From: a virus
Reading direction: 5' to 3' (one strand)
DNA length: 64,000 nt
Virus record (IMG/VR): IMGVR_UViG_3300020057_001229
Location: 1 to 64,000 of that record
The notes beneath the pieces are model-generated. The model worked only from the letters and a program-made list of their open reading frames with translations, was not told the DNA's origin and did not search any database. Position 1 is the first letter of the stretch. Each line of letters starts with the position of its first letter. Shown here piece after piece: positions 9,126-53,570 of this stretch. The translations under genes were made by a program, and so were the position numbers.

Positions 9126-9201
9126 TGGAGCCCGAGGTCGGAGTCGAACCGACGACCTTCACATTACAAGTGTGCTGCTCTACCAACTGAGCTACTCGGG
9201 C
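9126..9201 (-). tRNA. tRNA-Thr(UGU)
   Basis: Cloverleaf; loop CTTGTAA; encoded CCA. Confidence 0.95.
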
Positions 9202-9212
9202 ATTTTAAAAAA

Positions 9213-9299
9213 TGGCGGAAACGGTGGGACTCGAACCCACAAGGCTTTTACACCCACTCGCTTTCCATGCGAGCCGACTACCAATTATCACACGTTTCC
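9213..9299 (-). tRNA. tRNA-Ser(GGA)
   Basis: Cloverleaf with long variable arm; loop ATGGAAA; G73 + CCA. Confidence 0.93.
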
Positions 9300-9307
9300 A
9301 TAAATAA

Positions 9308-9535
9308 TCATTCTTCACAAATCGCAACTCTGAAAATGGGGTCCTTATGAAACAGAGGAGGACAATCGTCGGATTGATACATATTTTCTACACACCCGAT
9401 AAACCCCTCGTCCCCTTCTCGATACTCTACTACTTTCTTTTCTCTCAGCATGAACTTTAAAAACTCACAATGCTCAGGTCTTTGAGCGACTACGGAGTAG
9501 AGTGCTAATTCTGATTCGTAGATCACTCGGTACAT
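9308..9535 (-). CDS. Hypothetical protein within the Ser/Thr tRNA operon
   Basis: Small ORF overlapping the stop of the upstream ORF. Confidence 0.5.
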   Translation of the reverse strand: MYRVIYESELALYSVVAQRPEHCEFLKFMLREKKVVEYREGDEGFIGCVENMYQSDDCPPLFHKDPIFRVAICEE

Positions 9536-9777
9536 TACGTCTCCATTTGAGCTAACAGCGGCGTTACACGAGCGTTTCTCTCTGCAAAATAAATAGGACT
9601 AGGCTGCTTAGCTATCCACTCAACGCACTCTTCTTCCGTATCGAAATCTGCTGCTACGATGTCATCTTGTTCGTCGATTACAAACCAAGCCTTCATCGAC
9701 TTTTCCGACCGCTCTTTACACTCGTCGTGGTACTTGAACCAAGAATCTGGCGGTCTGCCCACGTTTACATCATCCAT
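9535..9777 (-). CDS. Hypothetical protein within the Ser/Thr tRNA operon
   Basis: Small ORF with AGGTG SD. Confidence 0.55.
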   Translation of the reverse strand: MDDVNVGRPPDSWFKYHDECKERSEKSMKAWFVIDEQDDIVAADFDTEEECVEWIAKQPSPIYFAERNARVTPLLAQMET

Positions 9778-9794
9778 AAATCACCTTTGAAAAA

Positions 9795-9882
9795 TGGCGG
9801 AGCAAGTCCGATTTGAACGGACGGTACTTTTACATACGGCGGGTTTCAAGTCCGCTGGTTTAAACCGCTCACCCACTACTCC
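9795..9882 (-). tRNA. tRNA-Ser(UGA)
   Basis: Cloverleaf with long variable arm; loop CTTGAAA; G73 + CCA. Confidence 0.93.
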
Positions 9883-9894
9883 GTTATAAAGCAC

Positions 9895-10116
9895 TTACAA
9901 ACACCTCTGTAGGTTTCCGTTCTTATCTTGTTGCACATCCCAAACAGAACCGTCGTTTTCGACGATGACCGTAATGCGCCCTTCTACGAAGTCACACGTC
10001 ATACATTCGTACTTGTTGACGACACGAACGATGTGGTCTCCTGCAAAGGAGAGAACCATCTTTTCGCTGTTACCGTCCCAAGGGTGTCCTACGAGATCTT
10101 TCAAAACTTGCATCAC
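9895..10116 (-). CDS. Small protein, possibly protease-inhibitor-I78-like
   Basis: DLVG...VRVV...MTCDF..GRITV pattern; family call is tentative. Confidence 0.4.
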   Translation of the reverse strand: MMQVLKDLVGHPWDGNSEKMVLSFAGDHIVRVVNKYECMTCDFVEGRITVIVENDGSVWDVQQDKNGNLQRCL

Positions 10117-10135
10117 TACACTCCGAACTAAAGAA

Positions 10136-10221
10136 TGGCGGTAGCGGAGAGACTTGAACTCTCAAGGCTGTTACACCCGACCGCTTTCGAAACGGCTCCA
10201 ATACCATTATGGGACGCTACC
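10136..10221 (-). tRNA. tRNA-Ser(CGA)
   Basis: Cloverleaf with long variable arm; loop TTCGAAA; G73 + CCA. Confidence 0.93.
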
Positions 10222-15728: not shown

Positions 15729-15805
15729 TGGTTGCGGGAGCGTGAGTCGAACACGCCGAGCTTTAGGTTATGAGCCTAACGAGCCTCCCTTGCTCCATTC
15801 CCGCT
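15729..15805 (-). tRNA. tRNA-Met(CAU), initiator-like
   Basis: Loop CTCATAA; unpaired 1:72 position; CCA; TTGACT-N17-TAGATT promoter directly upstream. Confidence 0.85.
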
Positions 15806-26113: not shown

Positions 26114-26722
26114 TTAGTCTTCGACAGGCAGCTTCATGAACTCGATGCGGTCAGTGATCCCTAGCTCCCACAGCATGGTGCGGATGTAGCCGAGGTCTAG
26201 CTTGTCGTCACCGAGCTTGTGGCGAATCGCCATAATGTCGGCTTTGTCTTTGTAGCGCATAGAGCCAAGCTTCGTCAGGATCAAGTCTTCCGCTGAGACG
26301 ATCTTGACGCTTTGACCTAAAAGGGAAGTTGACTTCGCTCTCTTTAGCATCGACGCCGTAAACGTTGCGTCTTTGTAGCCGATGAAATCAACTTCACGCC
26401 CGCGATACTCCATCTTGTAGATGACGCGGTTTGGCTTGACGTAGGGCAGCTCTTCCTTCAAGACGAAGCCAAGCTTCTTGAAGTGGTCAGCGAGCTTGTC
26501 TAGGTCTGCGGCAGCTACCACGAAGTCCAAGTCTTCGGTGGCACGCGGCTTAGCGTGGACAGAGATCGCAAGACCACCAGCAAGCACTGCGTCCTGAGAC
26601 GAAAGCTCTTTCAAGACGAGGTTCAAGAACTCGCCAAGCTGCATTCGGTTAGGGGCAGCGAAGATGGCTTCTAGTTCTAAGGCATCGGCGACGGCTTGTT
26701 GTTCTGGTTGTTTGACGGTCAT
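26114..26722 (-). CDS. Nucleotidyltransferase (AbiEii/DUF6036-like)
   Basis: AGGLA, PRATEDLD, EDLILTKL...R.KD.AD. Confidence 0.75.
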   Translation of the reverse strand: MTVKQPEQQAVADALELEAIFAAPNRMQLGEFLNLVLKELSSQDAVLAGGLAISVHAKPRATEDLDFVVAAADLDKLADHFKKLGFVLKEELPYVKPNRVIYKMEYRGREVDFIGYKDATFTASMLKRAKSTSLLGQSVKIVSAEDLILTKLGSMRYKDKADIMAIRHKLGDDKLDLGYIRTMLWELGITDRIEFMKLPVED

Positions 26723-26966: not shown

Positions 26967-28106
26967 CTAAATTTGGACTCGGTGACATTGTGTTGACATT
27001 ATAGGATGTTGCTGAGCGTGAGGCTCAAGAACTTCGTTGTCGCCAGTCTCGAAAGGTGGCGTGGTCGTAGCGACCTTACACTCAAGAAGAACCCGTTCGA
27101 GGTCTTCCTCAGTTTCCAACTTGAAGAACCGATCGCCGGTTATCTTGTAGACCTTATCCCAGTCGATTTCCCGTAGCTGATACCTGCGTGGGACATCGTT
27201 TGGCACAGACATGTAGACGAATTCGGCGATGTCGAACGGCTTCTGAATGTTGGGTACAATAATACCTAGCCAGGCAAATCGTTTGATGGTTTTCAGTTTA
27301 TCAGCGTCTTTCTTTTGAACTTCCTTAAAAGCTTCCATGCCGAAAATTGGTTTGTAATGATGAATACCGTTGTACTCTAACACTATGTAGTAGTCCCCAA
27401 CCTTAATTACAGAATCGAATTCCCGCTCTCTGTTTCTATCTTTAACAGCTAGCGCCCCGACGAGCGTTGAAAGAGCGATTGTTGCTACAAGCTCTGGTCG
27501 AGTAGTGGACCTGTTGCGCTTCATATGCGAGCAAATATCATTTAGAATACCAAGCTTACAAGCGGCGCTATATTTGCCGGGACTACCTTCTTTGAAGGCT
27601 AATCTTGTCTCATATTTCAAGGCTTCAGCTTGAAGTGACTCTAAAGTGTGTTCCTTGTAACGAACAATCATATGCGAGCAAATATCAGGTATAATACCAC
27701 GCTTATGAGCGCTATAATATTCGCTGCGGCTACCTTCTTTGAAGGCTGCCATTGTCTCATATTTCAAGGCTTCAGCTTGAAGTGACTCTAAAGTGTGTAC
27801 CTTGTGCTGAGCAATCATATGCGAGCAAATATCATTTAGAATACCAAGCCTCCGAGCGGCGCTATATTCGGCGGGACTACCTCCTTGGAAGGCTGCCCTT
27901 GTCTCATATTTCAAGGCTTCAGCTTGAAGCGACTCTAAAGTGTGTTCCTTACGCTGAGCAATCATATGCGAGCAAATATCGTCTAGAATACCAAGCCTCC
28001 GAGCGGTACTATATTCGGCGGGACTACCTTTCGAGAAGCCTATCCTTGTCTCATATTTCAAGGCTTCAGCTTGAAGTGACTCTAAAGTGTGTTGTTTATT
28101 TGCCAC
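26967..28106 (-). CDS. Tandem-repeat protein with C-terminal PD-(D/E)xK/Vsr-like nuclease domain (putative homing endonuclease)
   Basis: Four 49-aa repeats, then EFD...LEYNGIHHY...QKKDADK. Confidence 0.7.
   Translation of the reverse strand: MANKQHTLESLQAEALKYETRIGFSKGSPAEYSTARRLGILDDICSHMIAQRKEHTLESLQAEALKYETRAAFQGGSPAEYSAARRLGILNDICSHMIAQHKVHTLESLQAEALKYETMAAFKEGSRSEYYSAHKRGIIPDICSHMIVRYKEHTLESLQAEALKYETRLAFKEGSPGKYSAACKLGILNDICSHMKRNRSTTRPELVATIALSTLVGALAVKDRNREREFDSVIKVGDYYIVLEYNGIHHYKPIFGMEAFKEVQKKDADKLKTIKRFAWLGIIVPNIQKPFDIAEFVYMSVPNDVPRRYQLREIDWDKVYKITGDRFFKLETEEDLERVLLECKVATTTPPFETGDNEVLEPHAQQHPIMSTQCHRVQI
27522..28091. repeat. Four tandem 147-bp coding repeats
   Basis: CATATGCGAGCAAATATC recurs at 27522, 27669, 27816 and 27963. 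Confidence 0.92.
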
Positions 28107-28253
28107 TAATGCGCTCCATAGGATTTCTTAAAATAATGAAGCGGTGAGAGCTGGTTGTCAAATTTGAAGAACTTGGAACACCAAATTAAAAGTTTGGTGC
28201 CCTCAAAATAAAATCAGGCAACAGTTGCCGTATACTTTTGTATTTTTTGAGAT

Positions 28254-28328
28254 TGGCGACCCTGGCAGGAATCCAACCTGCACGAAGGCGTTAGAAGCGC
28301 CTGATGCTATGCATTACATCACAGAGTC
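28254..28328 (-). tRNA. tRNA-Arg(UCU)
   Basis: Cloverleaf; loop CTTCTAA; atypical T-loop TTGGATT; CCA. Confidence 0.85.
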
Positions 28329-28380
28329 AATTGTTTGCTGAAGAGAGGGGAGTGCGAACGTAAGATGCAAACGCGGAAGG

Positions 28381-28440
28381 TTACACCCGCCTGCGTTTTG
28401 CCTTAGAGAAAGATCTTGAAGATGTAGAGAGAAAGAACAT
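28381..28440 (-). promoter_or_regulatory. Arg leader peptide MFFLSTSSRSFSKAKRRRV
   Basis: AGA plus tandem CGC AGG CGG; hairpin over the stop codon; ends ~50 nt upstream of tRNA-Arg. Confidence 0.7.
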
Positions 28441-28494
28441 AGTAGTACCTAGATATTCACGTATACAATTTAGTATATTGTCTTCTGGAAAAAA

Positions 28495-28950
28495 ATGTCA
28501 AAGGGAAATTTCATGGATTATCCAATAGCCACCGTCCGCGAGATCAACGGAGAACTTTTTCTCGACGATCCTACGGCGCTTGCCGTCATCAAAGCCACCA
28601 GCCGCGCCGCTTGCCGTAAGACGTTTGAGATGCAAAGAGACCGCGTAGAGCACTTCGTCACTCGCACCAGTGCGCTCAACCTTTCGACGGAAGATGTTGT
28701 CATCGTTTTAGCCAACGCCGATGACCCTAACGGCAAACAGCTCGCCGAAGCCCTCATGCCGAACCACGATTGGCAAGCTTACCGCAACCTAGGCGAGCTT
28801 CCCTTTGCTCGCGGGCTTGCTGAGAGGGAAGGCATCCAGTGGTTCATAGAGGATATGGAGCCTGACATGGCTTCGGTGCTCAAGAACCATGCTGGAGTTG
28901 CTGTAGTCGTCGTAGACCACGGCGTCATAGAAGTTCTTTCGCCGTCGTAA
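28495..28950 (+). CDS. Hypothetical protein
   Basis: ORF. Confidence 0.6.
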   Translation: MSKGNFMDYPIATVREINGELFLDDPTALAVIKATSRAACRKTFEMQRDRVEHFVTRTSALNLSTEDVVIVLANADDPNGKQLAEALMPNHDWQAYRNLGELPFARGLAEREGIQWFIEDMEPDMASVLKNHAGVAVVVVDHGVIEVLSPS

Positions 28951-32360: not shown

Positions 32361-32414
32361 ATGCAATACTTTCTCCCTCCATTGCTACCCCTCCTGACCA
32401 AGCTCTTACCGTAA
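32361..32414 (+). promoter_or_regulatory. Leu/Pro leader peptide MQYFLPPLLPLLTKLLP
   Basis: 7 Leu and 4 Pro of 17 codons; TTGACG-N17-TACGGT promoter ending 6 nt upstream; hairpin over the stop codon. Confidence 0.85.
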
Positions 32415-32645: not shown

Positions 32646-32723
32646 CGGGCAGTGGGCTAATTGGTAAGCCGCTTGGTTTGGGACCAAGACATCATGCGAG
32701 TTCAAGTCTCGCCTGCCCGACCA
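32646..32723 (+). tRNA. tRNA-Pro(UGG)
   Basis: Cloverleaf; loop TTTGGGA; A73 + CCA. Confidence 0.93.
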
Positions 32724-32763
32724 CTTCCTTAGATTCGTTTGGGAACTCAAAAGGAGATCCCAA

Positions 32764-33129
32764 ATGTCTGACGACATAGAGAAAAAAAGAAAGTATTGGC
32801 GTGATTGGTACTACAGAAAGATGGATCAAGATCCTGAGTGGCGTAAAGCAGAATCAGAGCGGAATAGCGTCAAGCGCAAAGTTAAGAGGGACTGGTTAGT
32901 AGGGCTGAAAAAAAGTATGAAGTGCGCCAGATGTGATTTTTCAGATTTTAGGGCGTTGTGCTTCCATCACTCCGATCCTTCGCAGAAAAAGGGGGAGATC
33001 GCAAATATGATAAAAGAAAACTACGGCAAAGAGCGGATTTTGGAGGAGATGGCTAAGTGTGAAGTTCTGTGTCAGAATTGCCACCATATTGAACACTATG
33101 AACAGCGTACACAGTCTAAAGTCGCATAA
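32764..33129 (+). CDS. Free-standing HNH endonuclease
   Basis: CARC...LCFHH.DP..K...KCEVLCQNCH. Confidence 0.85.
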   Translation: MSDDIEKKRKYWRDWYYRKMDQDPEWRKAESERNSVKRKVKRDWLVGLKKSMKCARCDFSDFRALCFHHSDPSQKKGEIANMIKENYGKERILEEMAKCEVLCQNCHHIEHYEQRTQSKVA

Positions 33130-33359
33130 ATATCTTTTGAGTCTCGTGTGGTGGTGAAACTGGTTTACTTAGGATTGGGGGGAGAGAAGTAGGGCATCTA
33201 TAGGTTCTATAGGACCATTTTCACCTACTTCTCAAAGGGCTTTTTCAATGGCATATTTCAACGGTTTCGTTAGCGGCGTTCTATTTGGTCTCGGACTTTT
33301 CGTCGCTTCTGTGTTAGTACAGGCATTGTTCCATATGCCTTTGCTTGGGTAAATCTTCC

Positions 33360-33444
33360 GCTGGCATGGTGGAATTGGTAGACACATCAGTCTGAGAGGC
33401 TGACGGGGAAACTTGTGCAGGTTCGAGTCCTGTTGCCAGCACCA
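33360..33444 (+). tRNA. tRNA-Leu(GAG)
   Basis: Long variable arm; loop CTGAGAG; A73 + CCA. Confidence 0.93.
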
Positions 33445-33462
33445 TGTTTAGAAGAGAGTTCT

Positions 33463-33861
33463 GTGGAAATTAAAGGCACGCTAGCGGGTTGGTTTGAGAC
33501 TGGTTCTGAAGGTACCTATTGGACCCTTCAAGATGAGAAACACATCGACGACAAAGGCATGTACTCCTACGAAGGGATGCATGTACTAAAAAGCGGTATG
33601 CAGCTAGTTATCCACTATCCAAAGTCAGATAAAGTCTATTGGGAAGGTCAGCTTGTTCTCGTTCCGGGTTACGATCCGAAACTTTTGAAAAAGCTAGGGT
33701 TGCATTACTACGTAAAAAAGCATCCGTCAGGGCTTAAGCAGCTCTCACTCGGCGGCTACTGGATACATAATTTACCGGTCGGGTTTGATTTAGCAATTTG
33801 GTACCGGATCTTCTTTCTCGACGAAGGTTGGACCGGGACCTTAACCTTAATTAAGGACTAG
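33463..33861 (+). CDS. Hypothetical protein
   Basis: GTG start after the tRNA; FETGSEG.YW. Confidence 0.65.
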   Translation: MEIKGTLAGWFETGSEGTYWTLQDEKHIDDKGMYSYEGMHVLKSGMQLVIHYPKSDKVYWEGQLVLVPGYDPKLLKKLGLHYYVKKHPSGLKQLSLGGYWIHNLPVGFDLAIWYRIFFLDEGWTGTLTLIKD

Positions 33862-33864
33862 CTG

Positions 33865-34101
33865 ATGCTACGAATGACGTTAGGTGCCAAAGCATATCTT
33901 GCGGGAAAAGCTCTTACGACGCCGCTGCTCAATGATCCCGTAGGTGATGAAGTGATACGCAGGCTCGACAAAGAGGATAGTGACGATCAGTTCGATGCTT
34001 ACATGATGTCTTTAGGCGACGGTGCTTCGCCCGACGACGTAGAGCTTACAGACGAAGAGTTAGACGAGTTGCGAAGAAGCAGTGAAGAGTACGAAGACTA
34101 A
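33865..34101 (+). CDS. Acidic hypothetical protein
   Basis: AAGGA SD. Confidence 0.55.
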   Translation: MLRMTLGAKAYLAGKALTTPLLNDPVGDEVIRRLDKEDSDDQFDAYMMSLGDGASPDDVELTDEELDELRRSSEEYED

Positions 34102-34102
34102 A

Positions 34103-34186
34103 GGACCGATGATGGAATGGTAGACATGTCAGTTTCAAAAGCTGATGCTGTAAGGTGTGAGGGTTCAAGTCCCTCTCGGTCCACCA
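34103..34186 (+). tRNA. tRNA-Leu(CAA)
   Basis: Long variable arm; loop TTCAAAA; A73 + CCA. Confidence 0.93.
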
Positions 34187-34279
34187 TAGCGGGGACGTGG
34201 TGAAATCGATAGACGAAAAGGGCAGACTTACCCATAATGAAAACGACTATTCTAACCACTTCTCATAAAGAAGAGTGCC

Positions 34280-34566
34280 ATGCAACAGCTCATTAACATG
34301 TTTGTTGGGAATCTTCCAAAACGAGTGTCTACCATTCGAGAAGCACAAGAAAGTGGGGACCTAGCAGAGGTTCAAAATTTAGCACATCAGATGTTGGGAT
34401 GTGCTGAAGGTTACGGCTTCCCTCAGTTAGGGCAAGTAGCAAGCAAGCAAGCAAGCTCGAAGCACTAATAAAAGACCATGGCAGCGAGCATAGCATCGAG
34501 TTGATGATTAATGCATTCGATGCCCAATGCCACTGCATTATCATCAGGCATGGTAATAGGCACTGA
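34280..34566 (+). pseudogene. Hpt (histidine phosphotransfer) protein frameshifted at (GCAA)4
   Basis: LAHQMLGCAEGYGFPQL motif; continuation KLEALIK... lies in another frame ending at 34566. Confidence 0.8.
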
Positions 34567-34569
34567 AAT

Positions 34570-34654
34570 GGGGACGTGGTGAAATTGGTAGACACACCGC
34601 GCTTAGAATGCGGCGATGAAAGTCATGTCGGTTCAAGTCCGACCGTCCCCACCA
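34570..34654 (+). tRNA. tRNA-Leu(UAG)
   Basis: Long variable arm; loop CTTAGAA; A73 + CCA. Confidence 0.93.
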
Positions 34655-34683
34655 CTTTAAGTTAGCAAAACACATATCTCTAA

Positions 34684-34759
34684 GTCCACGTAATCCAACG
34701 GCAGAGATAGAGCGCTTAAAACGCTTCCAGCGTGGGTTCGAATCCCACCGTGGACACCA
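34684..34759 (+). tRNA. tRNA-Leu(UAA) with short variable loop
   Basis: 76-nt cloverleaf; loop CTTAAAA; A73 + CCA. Confidence 0.88.
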
Positions 34760-43838: not shown

Positions 43839-45329
43839 ATGCTGAAGGCAGTGCTGCGCATAGGAGGTGGTTTAGTCGCCGTGTTCGGTGTCGTGCTGGT
43901 GACGTACACACTTAAGAGGATAGACTCTTACCTCGCGGACACACCCCTGCTTCTAGGCATATCTTCGCTTACGCTGATCGCGTTTTTCTTCGGCTGGTGG
44001 TCCGCCGTCATCTCCGCGCTTGCTTTTATTACCCTCATTAAGCTCTACGTTTCGCCAGAAATCCACACGGTGTCTTTCAGTCTTTTTGTCGCTCAGACTG
44101 CGATCATTGCGGGGCTCATCGAGAAGCTAGGTAACGCACGCCGTAGCTGCTCAGACGAAGCTACCAAATGCCAAGAGACCGAACACGAGCTTCGAGCCGC
44201 AAAAGAGCACGCAGAAAGATCTAACCAGACTAAGGGAGAATTTCTAGCCAACATGAGCCACGAGCTTCGCACTCCTCTCGGTGTCATTCTAGGCTACAGC
44301 GAAATCATAGCGAACGACACGCCTTCAAAGGAAGAGAAGATAGAATATGCTGACGCTATTAAGCGCAATGGTGAAACGTTAGCCAGATTGATAGATGACA
44401 TACTTGACCTAAGTCTTGCAGAAGCACAAAAGATAAGTATTGAAATACTACCTACATGCCTTAAAGATCTATGTACAGTTTTAGAAAAAGAGATGACGCC
44501 TCTAGCTGTACTAAAAAATATACGATTAAAGGTACACTGCGCCGATGTTCCTAATAACATACGCACTGACCCAATTCGTCTTAGACAAATACTTAGCAAT
44601 CTAGTTAACAACGGTATTAAATTCACCCCTTACGGAGGTGAAGTAAGCGTGTATGTGGAAAAATATGAAGAGACGCTATGCTTCGTCGTTCGGGACAATG
44701 GTAAGGGAATTTCTACTGAAGAAGCTAAGAAGCTTTTCAAGCCCTTCTCACAAGCCGACAGCTCTACGACGCGGAAATATGGGGGGACAGGCTTAGGCTT
44801 AGCGCTTTCTAAAAAGCTTGCTCAAAGCCTTGGCGGGGATGTTTTTTTGCGGGAAAGCGTTCCCGGCAAAGGGAGCACATTCGTTGTTCAAATCCACTTG
44901 ACGCCGACATCCTTGCACGAGACCAAGAGCAAGCATAAACATTTTGACGGCGCTCTCGACGGTGTCCGAGTCCTTCTTGCCGACGATGCCTTCGATAACA
45001 GACTGCTTTTGAAAGCGCTTTTGAAGCCAACGGGTGCGCTGCTTCGACTAGTGGAAGACGGCGAGCAAGCGCTTCAAGCTGTGCAACAGCACGACTTTGA
45101 CGTTGTTTTCTTAGATCTTCAAATGCCTATAATGGACGGCTACGAAGCTTGCCGTGCGCTGAGAAGTCAAGGCTACACAAAACCTATCATCGCTTTGACC
45201 GCGCACGCTATGCAGGAAGAAAGAACCAAAACGAAGACTGCTGGGTTCGATGCCCATGTCACTAAGCCGGTCAACGTCGGAAACCTCGTGAGCGCAATTC
45301 GTGCCTCGCTCGACGCCAAACCGAGTTAG
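43839..45329 (+). CDS. Membrane-bound hybrid sensor histidine kinase with receiver domain
   Basis: FLANMSHELRTPL, NLVNNGIKFT, DNGKG, GGTGLGL, LADD...FLDLQMPIMDG...KP. Confidence 0.95.
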   Translation: MLKAVLRIGGGLVAVFGVVLVTYTLKRIDSYLADTPLLLGISSLTLIAFFFGWWSAVISALAFITLIKLYVSPEIHTVSFSLFVAQTAIIAGLIEKLGNARRSCSDEATKCQETEHELRAAKEHAERSNQTKGEFLANMSHELRTPLGVILGYSEIIANDTPSKEEKIEYADAIKRNGETLARLIDDILDLSLAEAQKISIEILPTCLKDLCTVLEKEMTPLAVLKNIRLKVHCADVPNNIRTDPIRLRQILSNLVNNGIKFTPYGGEVSVYVEKYEETLCFVVRDNGKGISTEEAKKLFKPFSQADSSTTRKYGGTGLGLALSKKLAQSLGGDVFLRESVPGKGSTFVVQIHLTPTSLHETKSKHKHFDGALDGVRVLLADDAFDNRLLLKALLKPTGALLRLVEDGEQALQAVQQHDFDVVFLDLQMPIMDGYEACRALRSQGYTKPIIALTAHAMQEERTKTKTAGFDAHVTKPVNVGNLVSAIRASLDAKPS

Positions 45330-52141: not shown

Positions 52142-52194
52142 GGTTGACGAGTTCTGTGAGAGCTGCTAGGATTTGGGTAATGGGAGTTCACAAA

Positions 52195-52236
52195 ATGTTC
52201 CGTTCCGTAAATAACAATAATGAAGAAACAAGCTAG
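52195..52236 (+). promoter_or_regulatory. Asn/Glu leader peptide MFRSVNNNNEETS
   Basis: GGGAG SD; promoter TTGACG-N17-TAGGAT; four tandem Asn codons. Confidence 0.88.
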
Positions 52237-52261
52237 GGTCGAAAGTCCTTTCTGGCTTACG

Positions 52262-52290
52262 ACCCGTTTGGTAACCCAAGCGGGTTTTTT
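52262..52290 (+). terminator. Attenuator terminator upstream of tRNA-Asn
   Basis: ACCCGTTTGG-TAAC-CCAAGCGGGT plus T-tract. Confidence 0.88.
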
Positions 52291-52307
52291 ATTTGTATCG
52301 AATTTAT

Positions 52308-52385
52308 TCCGGTGTGGGGGAAGTTGGTAATCCCGCCTCGCTGTTACCGAGGAGCATGTACGTTCGATCCGTACCACCGGAGCCA
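52308..52385 (+). tRNA. tRNA-Asn(GUU)
   Basis: Cloverleaf; loop CTGTTAC; G73 + CCA. Confidence 0.92.
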
Positions 52386-52633
52386 ACTTTTTTAAAGGAC
52401 ACCATGAGAACTTTGAACACGCATCCGAATTGTCCGCCGACTGTCAGCAAAAACTCTGACGGTACCTTTACTGCACACGACATCGGCGAGATGTTGGATT
52501 GGCTTGCGGGAAGTCATGGGGACAGCGGTGTCCTGAAAATGTTGGCTCCAATGAAAGCAGTTGATACAGGTCGAGTCAGTGGTGTTGAGCCTGATGTTAG
52601 CGTTAGTTTAGGAAGTTACGAAGTGTGTGTAGT

Positions 52634-53137
52634 TTAAGCAGTTTCTAGCCTTATTTCTTGGTGTATTTCACGGTGGCAGTTAGCGCAGACCATAACACAT
52701 TTGTCTAATTCTTGTTTTGTACGTTCCCAAGATCTAGTGTGTCCTCCTTGAGAGGGATTGAAATCTTTCACGTTAGGGTCGAGATGGTGAAACTCAAGGG
52801 CGCTTACGCATTTACTGTAGCCGCAACGAGCACAGGAGCCTCCTTTATATGCAATAGATAGCTGCTTTAACTCTCGTCTTCTGTTCGTTACTTTGTCTTT
52901 ACTGTTACAGTTTATCGAGCAGAAACGTGTTTGGGTTCCAGTTAGAGGTTTTTGGCATACGTGCCATGTGCAATAGTTTCCGTTAGGTAGAGGGTTGCGT
53001 TCGTTTAGTGAGCGGGTATTGTGTAAGCCAAAGGGCGAGCAAGTAAGACAAAATTTGCGGTTACACAAATTTCTTTTTTTACCGTCAATTACAGTGTTTA
53101 TTGAGAAATGTGTGTTGCACTTTAGACAAGTAGGCAT
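52634..53137 (-). CDS. Free-standing HNH endonuclease with Cys-rich N-terminus
   Basis: CARCG...ALEFHHLDP..K...KC..VCANCH. Confidence 0.88.
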   Translation of the reverse strand: MPTCLKCNTHFSINTVIDGKKRNLCNRKFCLTCSPFGLHNTRSLNERNPLPNGNYCTWHVCQKPLTGTQTRFCSINCNSKDKVTNRRRELKQLSIAYKGGSCARCGYSKCVSALEFHHLDPNVKDFNPSQGGHTRSWERTKQELDKCVMVCANCHREIHQEIRLETA

Positions 53138-53202
53138 AAGTGTTTTCCGTAGCTAAGAGTTGGGTAACCAAATGGTGTTACTTAATCTAAGCGACGGTCA
53201 TG

Positions 53203-53290
53203 GGGAGAGTAGCCTATCGGCACGAGGCAGCGGCTTGTTAAGCCGCCAGTGGACGTAAGTCCGAAGTGGGTTCGATTCCCACCTCTCCCT
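53203..53290 (+). tRNA. Atypical tRNA with GUU anticodon and long variable arm, no CCA
   Basis: GGGAGAG/CTCTCCC acceptor, GCGGC-TTGTTAA-GCCGC, TGGAC-GTAA-GTCCG arm, GTGGG-TTCGATT-CCCAC. Confidence 0.75.
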
Positions 53291-53316
53291 CTTTTTTTCT
53301 ATAAGGAATTTTCGAT

Positions 53317-53358
53317 ATGCTGTTTCGACTAGAAGAAGAACAAATTAATTCGGGCTGA
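53317..53358 (+). promoter_or_regulatory. Glu leader peptide MLFRLEEEQINSG
   Basis: AAGGA SD; GAA GAA GAA; 3' TCGGGC is complementary to the terminator 5' arm. Confidence 0.88.
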
Positions 53359-53385
53359 GAGAGTCGGTAACGACAACTCTTTTAT

Positions 53386-53412
53386 GCCCGATCTTTGGAT
53401 CGGGCTTTTTTT
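53386..53412 (+). terminator. Attenuator terminator upstream of the tRNA-Glu pair
   Basis: GCCCGATC-TTTG-GATCGGGC-TTTTTTT. Confidence 0.9.
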
Positions 53413-53416
53413 ATGT

Positions 53417-53491
53417 GGCGTGCTCGTCTAGTGGTTAGGACGCTTGGTTCTCAGCCAGGAAAGAGGGGTTCAATTCCCCTGCACGCCTCCA
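53417..53491 (+). tRNA. tRNA-Glu(CUC)
   Basis: Cloverleaf; loop TTCTCAG; CCA. Confidence 0.9.
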
Positions 53492-53496
53492 AGTTC

Positions 53497-53570
53497 GGCG
53501 CATTCGTCTATTGGTAGGATTTCAGAATTTCAATCTGAAGAAAGGGGTTCAATTCCCCTATGCGTCACCA
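53497..53570 (+). tRNA. tRNA-Glu(UUC)
   Basis: Cloverleaf; loop ATTTCAA; CCA. Confidence 0.9.

Follow-up and report, generated by a model that had tools for sequence, protein, structure and literature searches.

A 19-codon open reading frame (ORF) with four arginine codons precedes the tRNA-Arg(UCU) gene of the phage record analysed here, and its setting in the genome leads us to conclude that it is probably a translated, working gauge of Arg-codon reading for this tRNA and one member of a phage-wide set. Of the 15 tRNAs in the record, 14 stand in amino-acid groups, each preceded by a short ORF rich in the corresponding codons (Ser/Thr, Leu/Pro, Asn, Glu, and Arg). Host Rho would be the most likely effector at the Arg leader because this leader lacks an intrinsic terminator; the full mechanism including Rho is, however, a proposal that the sequence lets us advance only tentatively. 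Leader-peptide gauges are textbook control of amino-acid synthesis and of some synthetase genes, and what appears to be new here, as far as the literature open to our search extends, is the probable application of codon-supply leader control to a tRNA gene, in a terminator-less form.

The phage and its tRNA genes

The source record of this uncultured phage (IMGVR_UViG_3300020057_001229) comprises 88,687 bases, and its CheckV completeness of 32% suggests a jumbo phage; the stretch of DNA analysed throughout (“the window”) is its first 64 kb. Near-identical DNA is present in sequencing runs labelled microbial mat metagenomes, and no RNA run is among those listed. Most proteins have no family; the families seen include DNA methylases and HNH endonucleases, as well as a tail-fibre-like protein and thymidylate synthase. 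Pfam and PHROGs revealed no host flank in the record. Host inference gave no assignment: the thymidylate synthase is 58–67% identical to genes of many phyla, and a 496-aa protein matches sensor kinases in many phages. The ORF of the latter (43839–45329, plus strand; phrog_20458) looks like a hybrid sensor histidine kinase, its tblastn hits carrying BarA/ArcB-like annotations. On the minus strand, a 202-aa ORF (26114–26722) has matches to nucleotidyltransferase families, among them the AbiEii toxin family (Pfam DUF6036, AbiEii).

All 15 tRNA genes of the record lie within the window, grouped by amino acid across five places (Table 1). The second tRNA-Asn(GUU) (53203–53291, plus strand, 89 nt) has a long extra arm of a sort typical of Leu, Ser, and Tyr tRNAs. 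Some 800 nt separate it from the first tRNA-Asn, an interval with a small plus-strand ORF and an apparent minus-strand ORF.

Anatomy of the Arg unit

The Arg unit occupies 28501–28207 on the minus strand and consists, in order, of a promoter-like site, a leader with the ORF, a spacer, tRNA-Arg(UCU), and a weak terminator-like hairpin (Table 1). From the placement of the promoter-like site—one of four in a 1-kb region where 0.9 were expected—transcription would start near 28465. The Shine–Dalgarno (SD) signal of the Arg ORF is weak: its pairing to an anti-SD motif is worth −3.7 kcal/mol (about the 25th percentile of random sites), with −6.8 kcal/mol for the Asn leader and −6.2 kcal/mol for the Glu leader on the same motif.

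The preliminary description of this region had pointed to four different Arg codons, a UC-rich and G-poor 5′ half, a hairpin across the stop codon, and a C-rich tract with no U-tract terminator, all upstream of tRNA-Arg(UCU), and each of these features is present in the minus-strand ORF and its flanks. The Arg codons fall at codon 9 (AGA) and codons 16–18 (CGC, AGG, CGG), and are outnumbered by Ser codons (four against five). The pyrimidine content of the 5′ half stands at the 99.5th percentile of 36-nt windows on both strands, and G as scarce as this occurs in 0.44% of them; this half is a candidate for the upstream part of a Rho loading site. The arms of the hairpin reported earlier lie inside the folded segment listed in Table 1, the 5′ arm containing codons 14–18 (Ala, Lys, Arg, Arg, Arg), with codon 19 (Val) and the stop codon in and beside the loop; the structure takes in the stop and the three Arg codons nearest to it. 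Over its full 137 nt, the leader is no more stably folded than its shuffles (z = −1.55).

The hairpin is followed by a U-poor stretch rather than a U tract, and no terminator-like site was found between the ORF (28381) and the tRNA (28329). The C/G skew of the spacer reaches the 99.65th percentile of 52-nt windows, a value that is somewhat selected, this being the best window in the leader; its last 38 nt, past the hairpin, hold 14 C and 3 G. Rho sites are usually quoted as 78 nt in size, and for 78-nt windows of the Arg leader the C–G excess falls only between the 85th and the 97.7th percentile; in addition, the G-rich hairpin splits the candidate site.

The tRNA gene is called by both ARAGORN and Rfam, and an Rfam search over the Arg leader returned nothing besides the tRNA. 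A hidden tRNA-like gene was rejected on the results of the same two programs. A small functional protein was likewise rejected as a role for the ORF, the peptide having only 19 residues and no membrane-spanning stretch. The T loop of tRNA-Arg(UCU) is unusual in having G in place of the conserved C56, and the D loop is without the usual GG, oddities that may represent a swapped tertiary pair.

Table 1. Coordinates of the Arg unit, of the other leaders, and of the tRNA genes in the window
Feature	Position	Strand	Details
Promoter-like site, Arg unit	28501-28472	-	TTGACA / 18 nt / TATACT; 11/12, consensus matches only
Predicted 5′ untranslated stretch	28465-28441	-	~25 nt; weak Shine–Dalgarno-like AGG 7 nt before ATG
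Arg leader ORF	ATG 28440-28438, TAA 28383-28381	-	MFFLSTSSRSFSKAKRRRV; 19 codons + TAA
Arg codons of the leader ORF	AGA 28416-28414, CGC 28395-28393, AGG 28392-28390, CGG 28389-28387	-	
5′ half of Arg ORF	28437-28402	-	pyrimidine-rich, G-poor; 27/36 pyrimidines, 2 G
Hairpin	28401-28367	-	−13.9 kcal/mol, z = −2.08; 7/200 shuffles fold as well
Spacer, stop codon to tRNA	28380-28329	-	52 nt, C-rich, G-poor; C 20, G 6
tRNA-Arg, anticodon UCU	28328-28254	-	CCA end encoded; ARAGORN; Rfam tRNA 48.7 bits
Weak terminator-like hairpin (28229-28217) with T-rich tail	28229-28207	-	would end a single-tRNA transcription unit
Promoter-like site of downstream 379-aa gene	28161-28133	-	
Ser/Thr leader ORF	10668-10606		11/19 cognate codons after Met; ahead of tRNA-Ser ×3 and tRNA-Thr
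tRNA-Ser ×3 and tRNA-Thr	9126-10221		
tRNA-Met	15729-15805		
Leu/Pro leader ORF	32361-32414		11/16 cognate codons; ahead of tRNA-Pro and four tRNA-Leu
tRNA-Pro and tRNA-Leu ×4	32646-34759		
Asn leader	52144-52307	+	promoter-like site 52144-52172; ORF 52195-52236, MFRSVNNNNEETS; tRNA-Asn at 52308
tRNA-Asn ×2 and tRNA-Glu ×2	52308-53570		
Glu leader	53292-53416	+	ORF 53317-53358, MLFRLEEEQINSG; three GAA in a row, good SD

Chance expectation for the Arg ORF

We compared the Arg ORF with a null set, namely the 452 ATG-initiated ORFs of 12–30 codons that the genome holds in its six frames. Of these, 39 reach an Arg fraction of 0.22 or more, 57 contain at least four Arg, 15 have an RRR run, and 11 have both. 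By itself, then, the Arg content is ordinary and not significant, while the composition is beyond chance. The label “Arg leader”, under which the region was originally described, receives strong, if indirect, backing from the matching-codon ORFs that the sibling tRNA units carry. Dinucleotide shuffling of the leader (5000 shuffles) produced an ORF with four or more Arg in 0.6% of cases and one with RRR in 0.08%, with the caveat that such a null dismantles the G-rich hairpin patch, one of whose three frames encodes RRR.

The mixture of codons counts against the proposed mechanism, as by standard decoding rules tRNA-Arg(UCU) reads only AGA and AGG and not CGC or CGG. The objection is softened because the four Arg codons represent four different decoding classes, a spread that has a probability of 0.027 given the codon usage of the phage and of 0.056 if usage is taken as uniform. 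Synonymous codons are mixed in the Ser/Thr and Leu/Pro leaders as well, including Ser AGT/AGC, for which the fragment has no tRNA.

A phage-wide set of cognate-codon leaders

Short ORFs were enumerated upstream of every tRNA gene in the record, which brought up the Asn and Glu leaders. The four sibling leaders have a cognate content far more extreme than that of the Arg leader, which is by far the weakest and least clear-cut of the five. The Ser/Thr leader ORF is followed by a strong terminator hairpin with a T run. The Asn leader ORF has four Asn in a row plus two Glu, a good SD, and an in-frame ATG at 52180, near the predicted transcript start; its terminator (52261–52286) carries a T run, and a competing upstream helix uses some of the same bases. 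In the Glu leader, which precedes tRNA-Glu(CUC) at 53417 and tRNA-Glu(UUC) at 53497, the terminator (53386–53405) carries seven T, and the last two ORF codons can pair with its 5′ arm. These three leaders show the classic terminator plus antiterminator layout, whereas a classic terminator is absent from the Arg and Leu/Pro leaders.

Several comparisons indicate that the pattern is non-random. Among the 452 short ORFs, an equal or higher cognate fraction occurs in two for Ser/Thr, one for Leu/Pro, none for Asn, and two for Glu; NNN and EEE runs occur once each in the whole set, in the Asn and Glu leaders, respectively. When the five leaders are permuted against the five tRNA groups, the true pairing scores best of all 120 permutations, and the Arg fraction is 0.22 in the Arg leader vs. 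0 to 0.08 in the other four. All five leaders have Phe at residue 2–4, as do 70 of the 452 short ORFs, although this feature was picked post hoc. The one tRNA outside the set, tRNA-Met, has no leader: a promoter-like site ends 7 nt before it, so that a 137-nt leader is not the default in this phage.

As a control, we took the tRNA regions at 10 loci of 5 distantly related jumbo-phage records, reached via the protein that neighbours the Arg unit. Their 151 tRNAs form large mixed clusters, and 86 have 60 nt or more of free sequence upstream. Of these 86, 3 have an upstream ATG ORF with at least four cognate codons and none has a cognate run of at least three; by the same test, 5 of the 12 tRNAs with such free upstream sequence in the phage record studied here (G000) match, 3 of them with runs.

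Within the set, the Arg leader most resembles the Leu/Pro leader in lacking a terminator, in having a small hairpin over the stop, and in carrying cognate codons up to or beside the stop. Both have C–G windows at or above the 99.6th percentile, and the three terminator-bearing leaders stay at or below the 97.6th, though the C-richness of the Leu/Pro leader is largely that of its own Pro and Leu codons. A CU-rich motif common to the Arg and Leu/Pro spacers, noticed by eye, was rejected: it has one match in the window, and at least one match appears in 44 of 100 shuffles. The 5′ ends also differ, as the Ser/Thr, Leu/Pro, and perhaps Asn transcripts look leaderless while the Arg ORF has a 5′ UTR of ~25 nt. 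A further ORF (33248–33352, plus strand), hydrophobic and of 34 codons with seven Leu, starts MAYF and stops 7 nt short of tRNA-Leu(GAG); it may encode a small membrane protein or may be one more leader rich in codons of one kind.

How the Arg leader might work

We propose that the 19-codon ORF would report the speed at which Arg codons are read and so set the share of transcripts from the strong predicted promoter that yield tRNA-Arg(UCU). When Arg decoding is fast, the ribosome would finish and leave the leader naked, whereupon Rho could load on the two G-poor stretches (one pyrimidine-rich, one C-rich) that flank the hairpin and would stop RNA polymerase in or just past the tRNA gene. When Arg decoding is slow, the ribosome would linger on the three Arg codons beside the stop and melt the hairpin; it would also queue following ribosomes over the upstream stretch, and with Rho thus blocked the tRNA would be made. 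The anatomy, the composition, and the pattern across the genome are observed, while translation of the ORF, the stalling, the part played by Rho, and any effect on the tRNA are what we infer.

The geometry was modelled with an assumed ribosome footprint of 30 nt. In this model the hairpin persists on ribosome-free RNA and with a ribosome at AGA (codon 9), and is melted by a ribosome at codons 16–18 or at the stop. A ribosome at codons 16–18 covers the hairpin and at most the first few bases of the spacer (~5 at codon 18; ~12 at the stop), and a stall at codon 9 leaves the hairpin and the whole spacer free. The earlier suggestion that stalling at Arg codons masks a Rho utilisation site therefore fits only in part: the hairpin and the first spacer bases would be covered, but the richest part in C would stay exposed. 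Because a stall at AGA exposes the spacer, feedback under Rho would have the wrong sign at that codon, which is the one most specific to tRNA-Arg(UCU).

Involvement of Rho would, provided that the host has Rho, be compatible with the two G-poor stretches and with the lack of an intrinsic terminator; the traits shared with the Leu/Pro leader (high C–G windows, cognate codons reaching the stop) and the modelled response of the hairpin to ribosome position also speak for it. Against it stand the modest C–G excess in 78-nt windows, the 52-nt C-rich spacer, which ends at the tRNA and leaves little room for a termination zone, and, as modelled, the failure of a ribosome stalled at codons 16–18 to reach past the start of that spacer. 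The same Arg gauge might instead work without Rho, through competing RNA folds that alter the 5′ processing or stability of the tRNA precursor, or through non-canonical, U-poor termination or pausing at the hairpin. We regard such a gauge as rather unlikely, even though all the genomic context that speaks for the leader ORF applies to it equally and the shortness of the spacer for a Rho terminator is in its favour. In the modelled transcript, a ribosome on codons 16–18 releases the 3′ arm of the hairpin, which can then base-pair with a complementary 6-nt stretch whose end lies 4 nt upstream of the tRNA 5′ end, where RNase P cleaves. Yet the resulting helix, with 6 pairs around a 28-nt loop, is weak (−3.7 kcal/mol), and the tRNA cloverleaf forms in the full-transcript fold regardless; no U tract follows the hairpin, and the two G-poor stretches would be left unexplained.

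The Arg ORF might also be no gauge at all, but a frame that arose by chance in an ordinary 5′ leader trimmed off by RNase P. The region would then owe its length to the divergent gene's promoter, which it also contains, and the hairpin and composition would have some other cause or none. We consider this unlikely. It accords with the ordinary Arg content, with the weak SD, and with the ease with which the G-rich hairpin patch gives Arg-Arg-Arg in one frame of three by chance. A weak plus-strand promoter-like site for the divergent gene (28450–28479, 9/12) indeed overlaps the predicted Arg 5′ UTR, and the gene callers place the start of that gene next to the leader at 28513 (145-aa form, P0001), which is likely the true start. 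The ORF, however, lies outside this promoter-like site, and tRNA-Met manages without any leader. Nor does chance sit well with the rarity of such an ORF among leader shuffles, with the highly non-random cognate leaders of the four other tRNA units, or with the absence of cognate runs in the control phages. That the inverted repeat acts as DNA, namely as a binding site for a regulator of divergent promoters, is highly improbable: it does lie between two divergent transcription units, but its arms of 8–9 nt are ~18 nt apart and roughly 100 bp upstream of the plus-strand start, such spacing is unusual for an operator, and an exact-match scan for the hairpin in viral contigs gave no match.

Comparison with known leader systems

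The tnaC leader, with a spacer of about 220 nt, controls protein-coding genes over a long distance, while the Arg leader has a 52-nt spacer, a tRNA target, and a putative role for Rho; tnaC moreover senses free tryptophan via the nascent peptide at its stop codon, and not codon supply. Otherwise the two share a short ORF, the lack of an intrinsic terminator, and C-richness next to the stop codon, and in both a ribosome held at the ORF end would bar Rho, as tnaC is presented in a review (PMC12360218). That text bears out the statement, made when the region was first described, that tnaC and mgtL leaders act through Rho, and it places both among the uORF-controlled Rho attenuators together with corL, speFL, and cruR; hisL may combine intrinsic with Rho-dependent termination (PMC12360218). 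In mgtL–mgtA and corL–corA of Salmonella, as there described, the speed at which uORF codons are read picks between folds that hide or expose a Rho site (PMC12360218), much as we envisage for the Arg leader. These are, however, long, well-mapped riboswitch-like RNAs that respond to Mg2+ and proline, whereas the Arg leader has only one significant hairpin and one weak alternative.

Classical attenuators (hisL, trpL, thrL, and pheL, as well as pheM–pheST) resemble the Arg leader in their short ORF with a run of cognate codons near its end. Unlike it, they have a U-tract terminator hairpin opposed by an antiterminator, and their targets are genes for biosynthesis or for synthetases rather than for tRNAs. 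In layout only, the Arg leader also recalls lambda tR1, where the Rho loading site is split into rutA and rutB by the boxB hairpin: both show two G-poor, pyrimidine-rich stretches parted by a hairpin. No leader ORF controls lambda tR1, however, and what it terminates is a segment of mRNA.

A full-text literature search, with subscription journals outside its reach, found no leader-peptide or Rho attenuator ahead of tRNA genes, and no tRNA gene is among the targets listed in the available part of the Rho review (PMC12360218). If the gauges are real, 14 of 15 viral tRNAs would answer decoding trouble rather than being made constitutively, which would be relevant to the long-standing question of why tRNA genes occur in phages. 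The Arg unit, as a small assembly of promoter, 137-nt leader, one tRNA, and end signal, would be an easy test object for the terminator-less device. At its broadest, the idea is that the phage runs an on-demand tRNA supply in which every tRNA group, sorted by amino acid, answers to a codon gauge of its own that ribosomes read, the Arg gauge sampling one codon of each of the four decoding classes and acting through a Rho site split around a hairpin; as a whole we find this conjecture doubtful. Were it true, the gauges would switch on phage tRNAs when host tRNAs run short, e.g., after cleavage by a host anticodon nuclease, and would form part of a counter-defence against the tRNA-targeting defences treated in two publications (PMC10264068; PMC12409363).

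Relatives and strain variation

Three further runs (X2, X3, and X4) have contigs in which the Arg ORF is preserved in full, with zero substitutions in the leader. The run of C in the spacer (28350–28347) is one base longer in X2 and X3, behind 28346, and identical in X4, so that spacer length is not fixed to the base. As near-identical strains, these contigs are uninformative on constraint acting on the ORF. More distant relatives of the Arg region did not emerge: blastn of 3 kb around it gave no match in phage records, patterns built on the tRNA-Arg gave none in viral or metagenome contigs, and the 151-aa neighbour protein had none in viral (IMG/VR) or metagenome (JGI) contigs. For the neighbour protein 33 homologues were found, with seven loci in jumbo-phage records, and at none of these seven does a tRNA lie beside the homologue.

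Downstream of the Arg unit, the 379-aa gene (26967–28106, minus strand) encodes four ~50-residue repeats in tandem, and its C-terminal part is HNH-like (phrog_20046, phrog_559). Contigs of X7, a more divergent strain, do not cover 27806–28407, and so not the tRNA-Arg locus; they break inside the 379-aa gene, with unlike sequence after 27648. The region may vary between strains.
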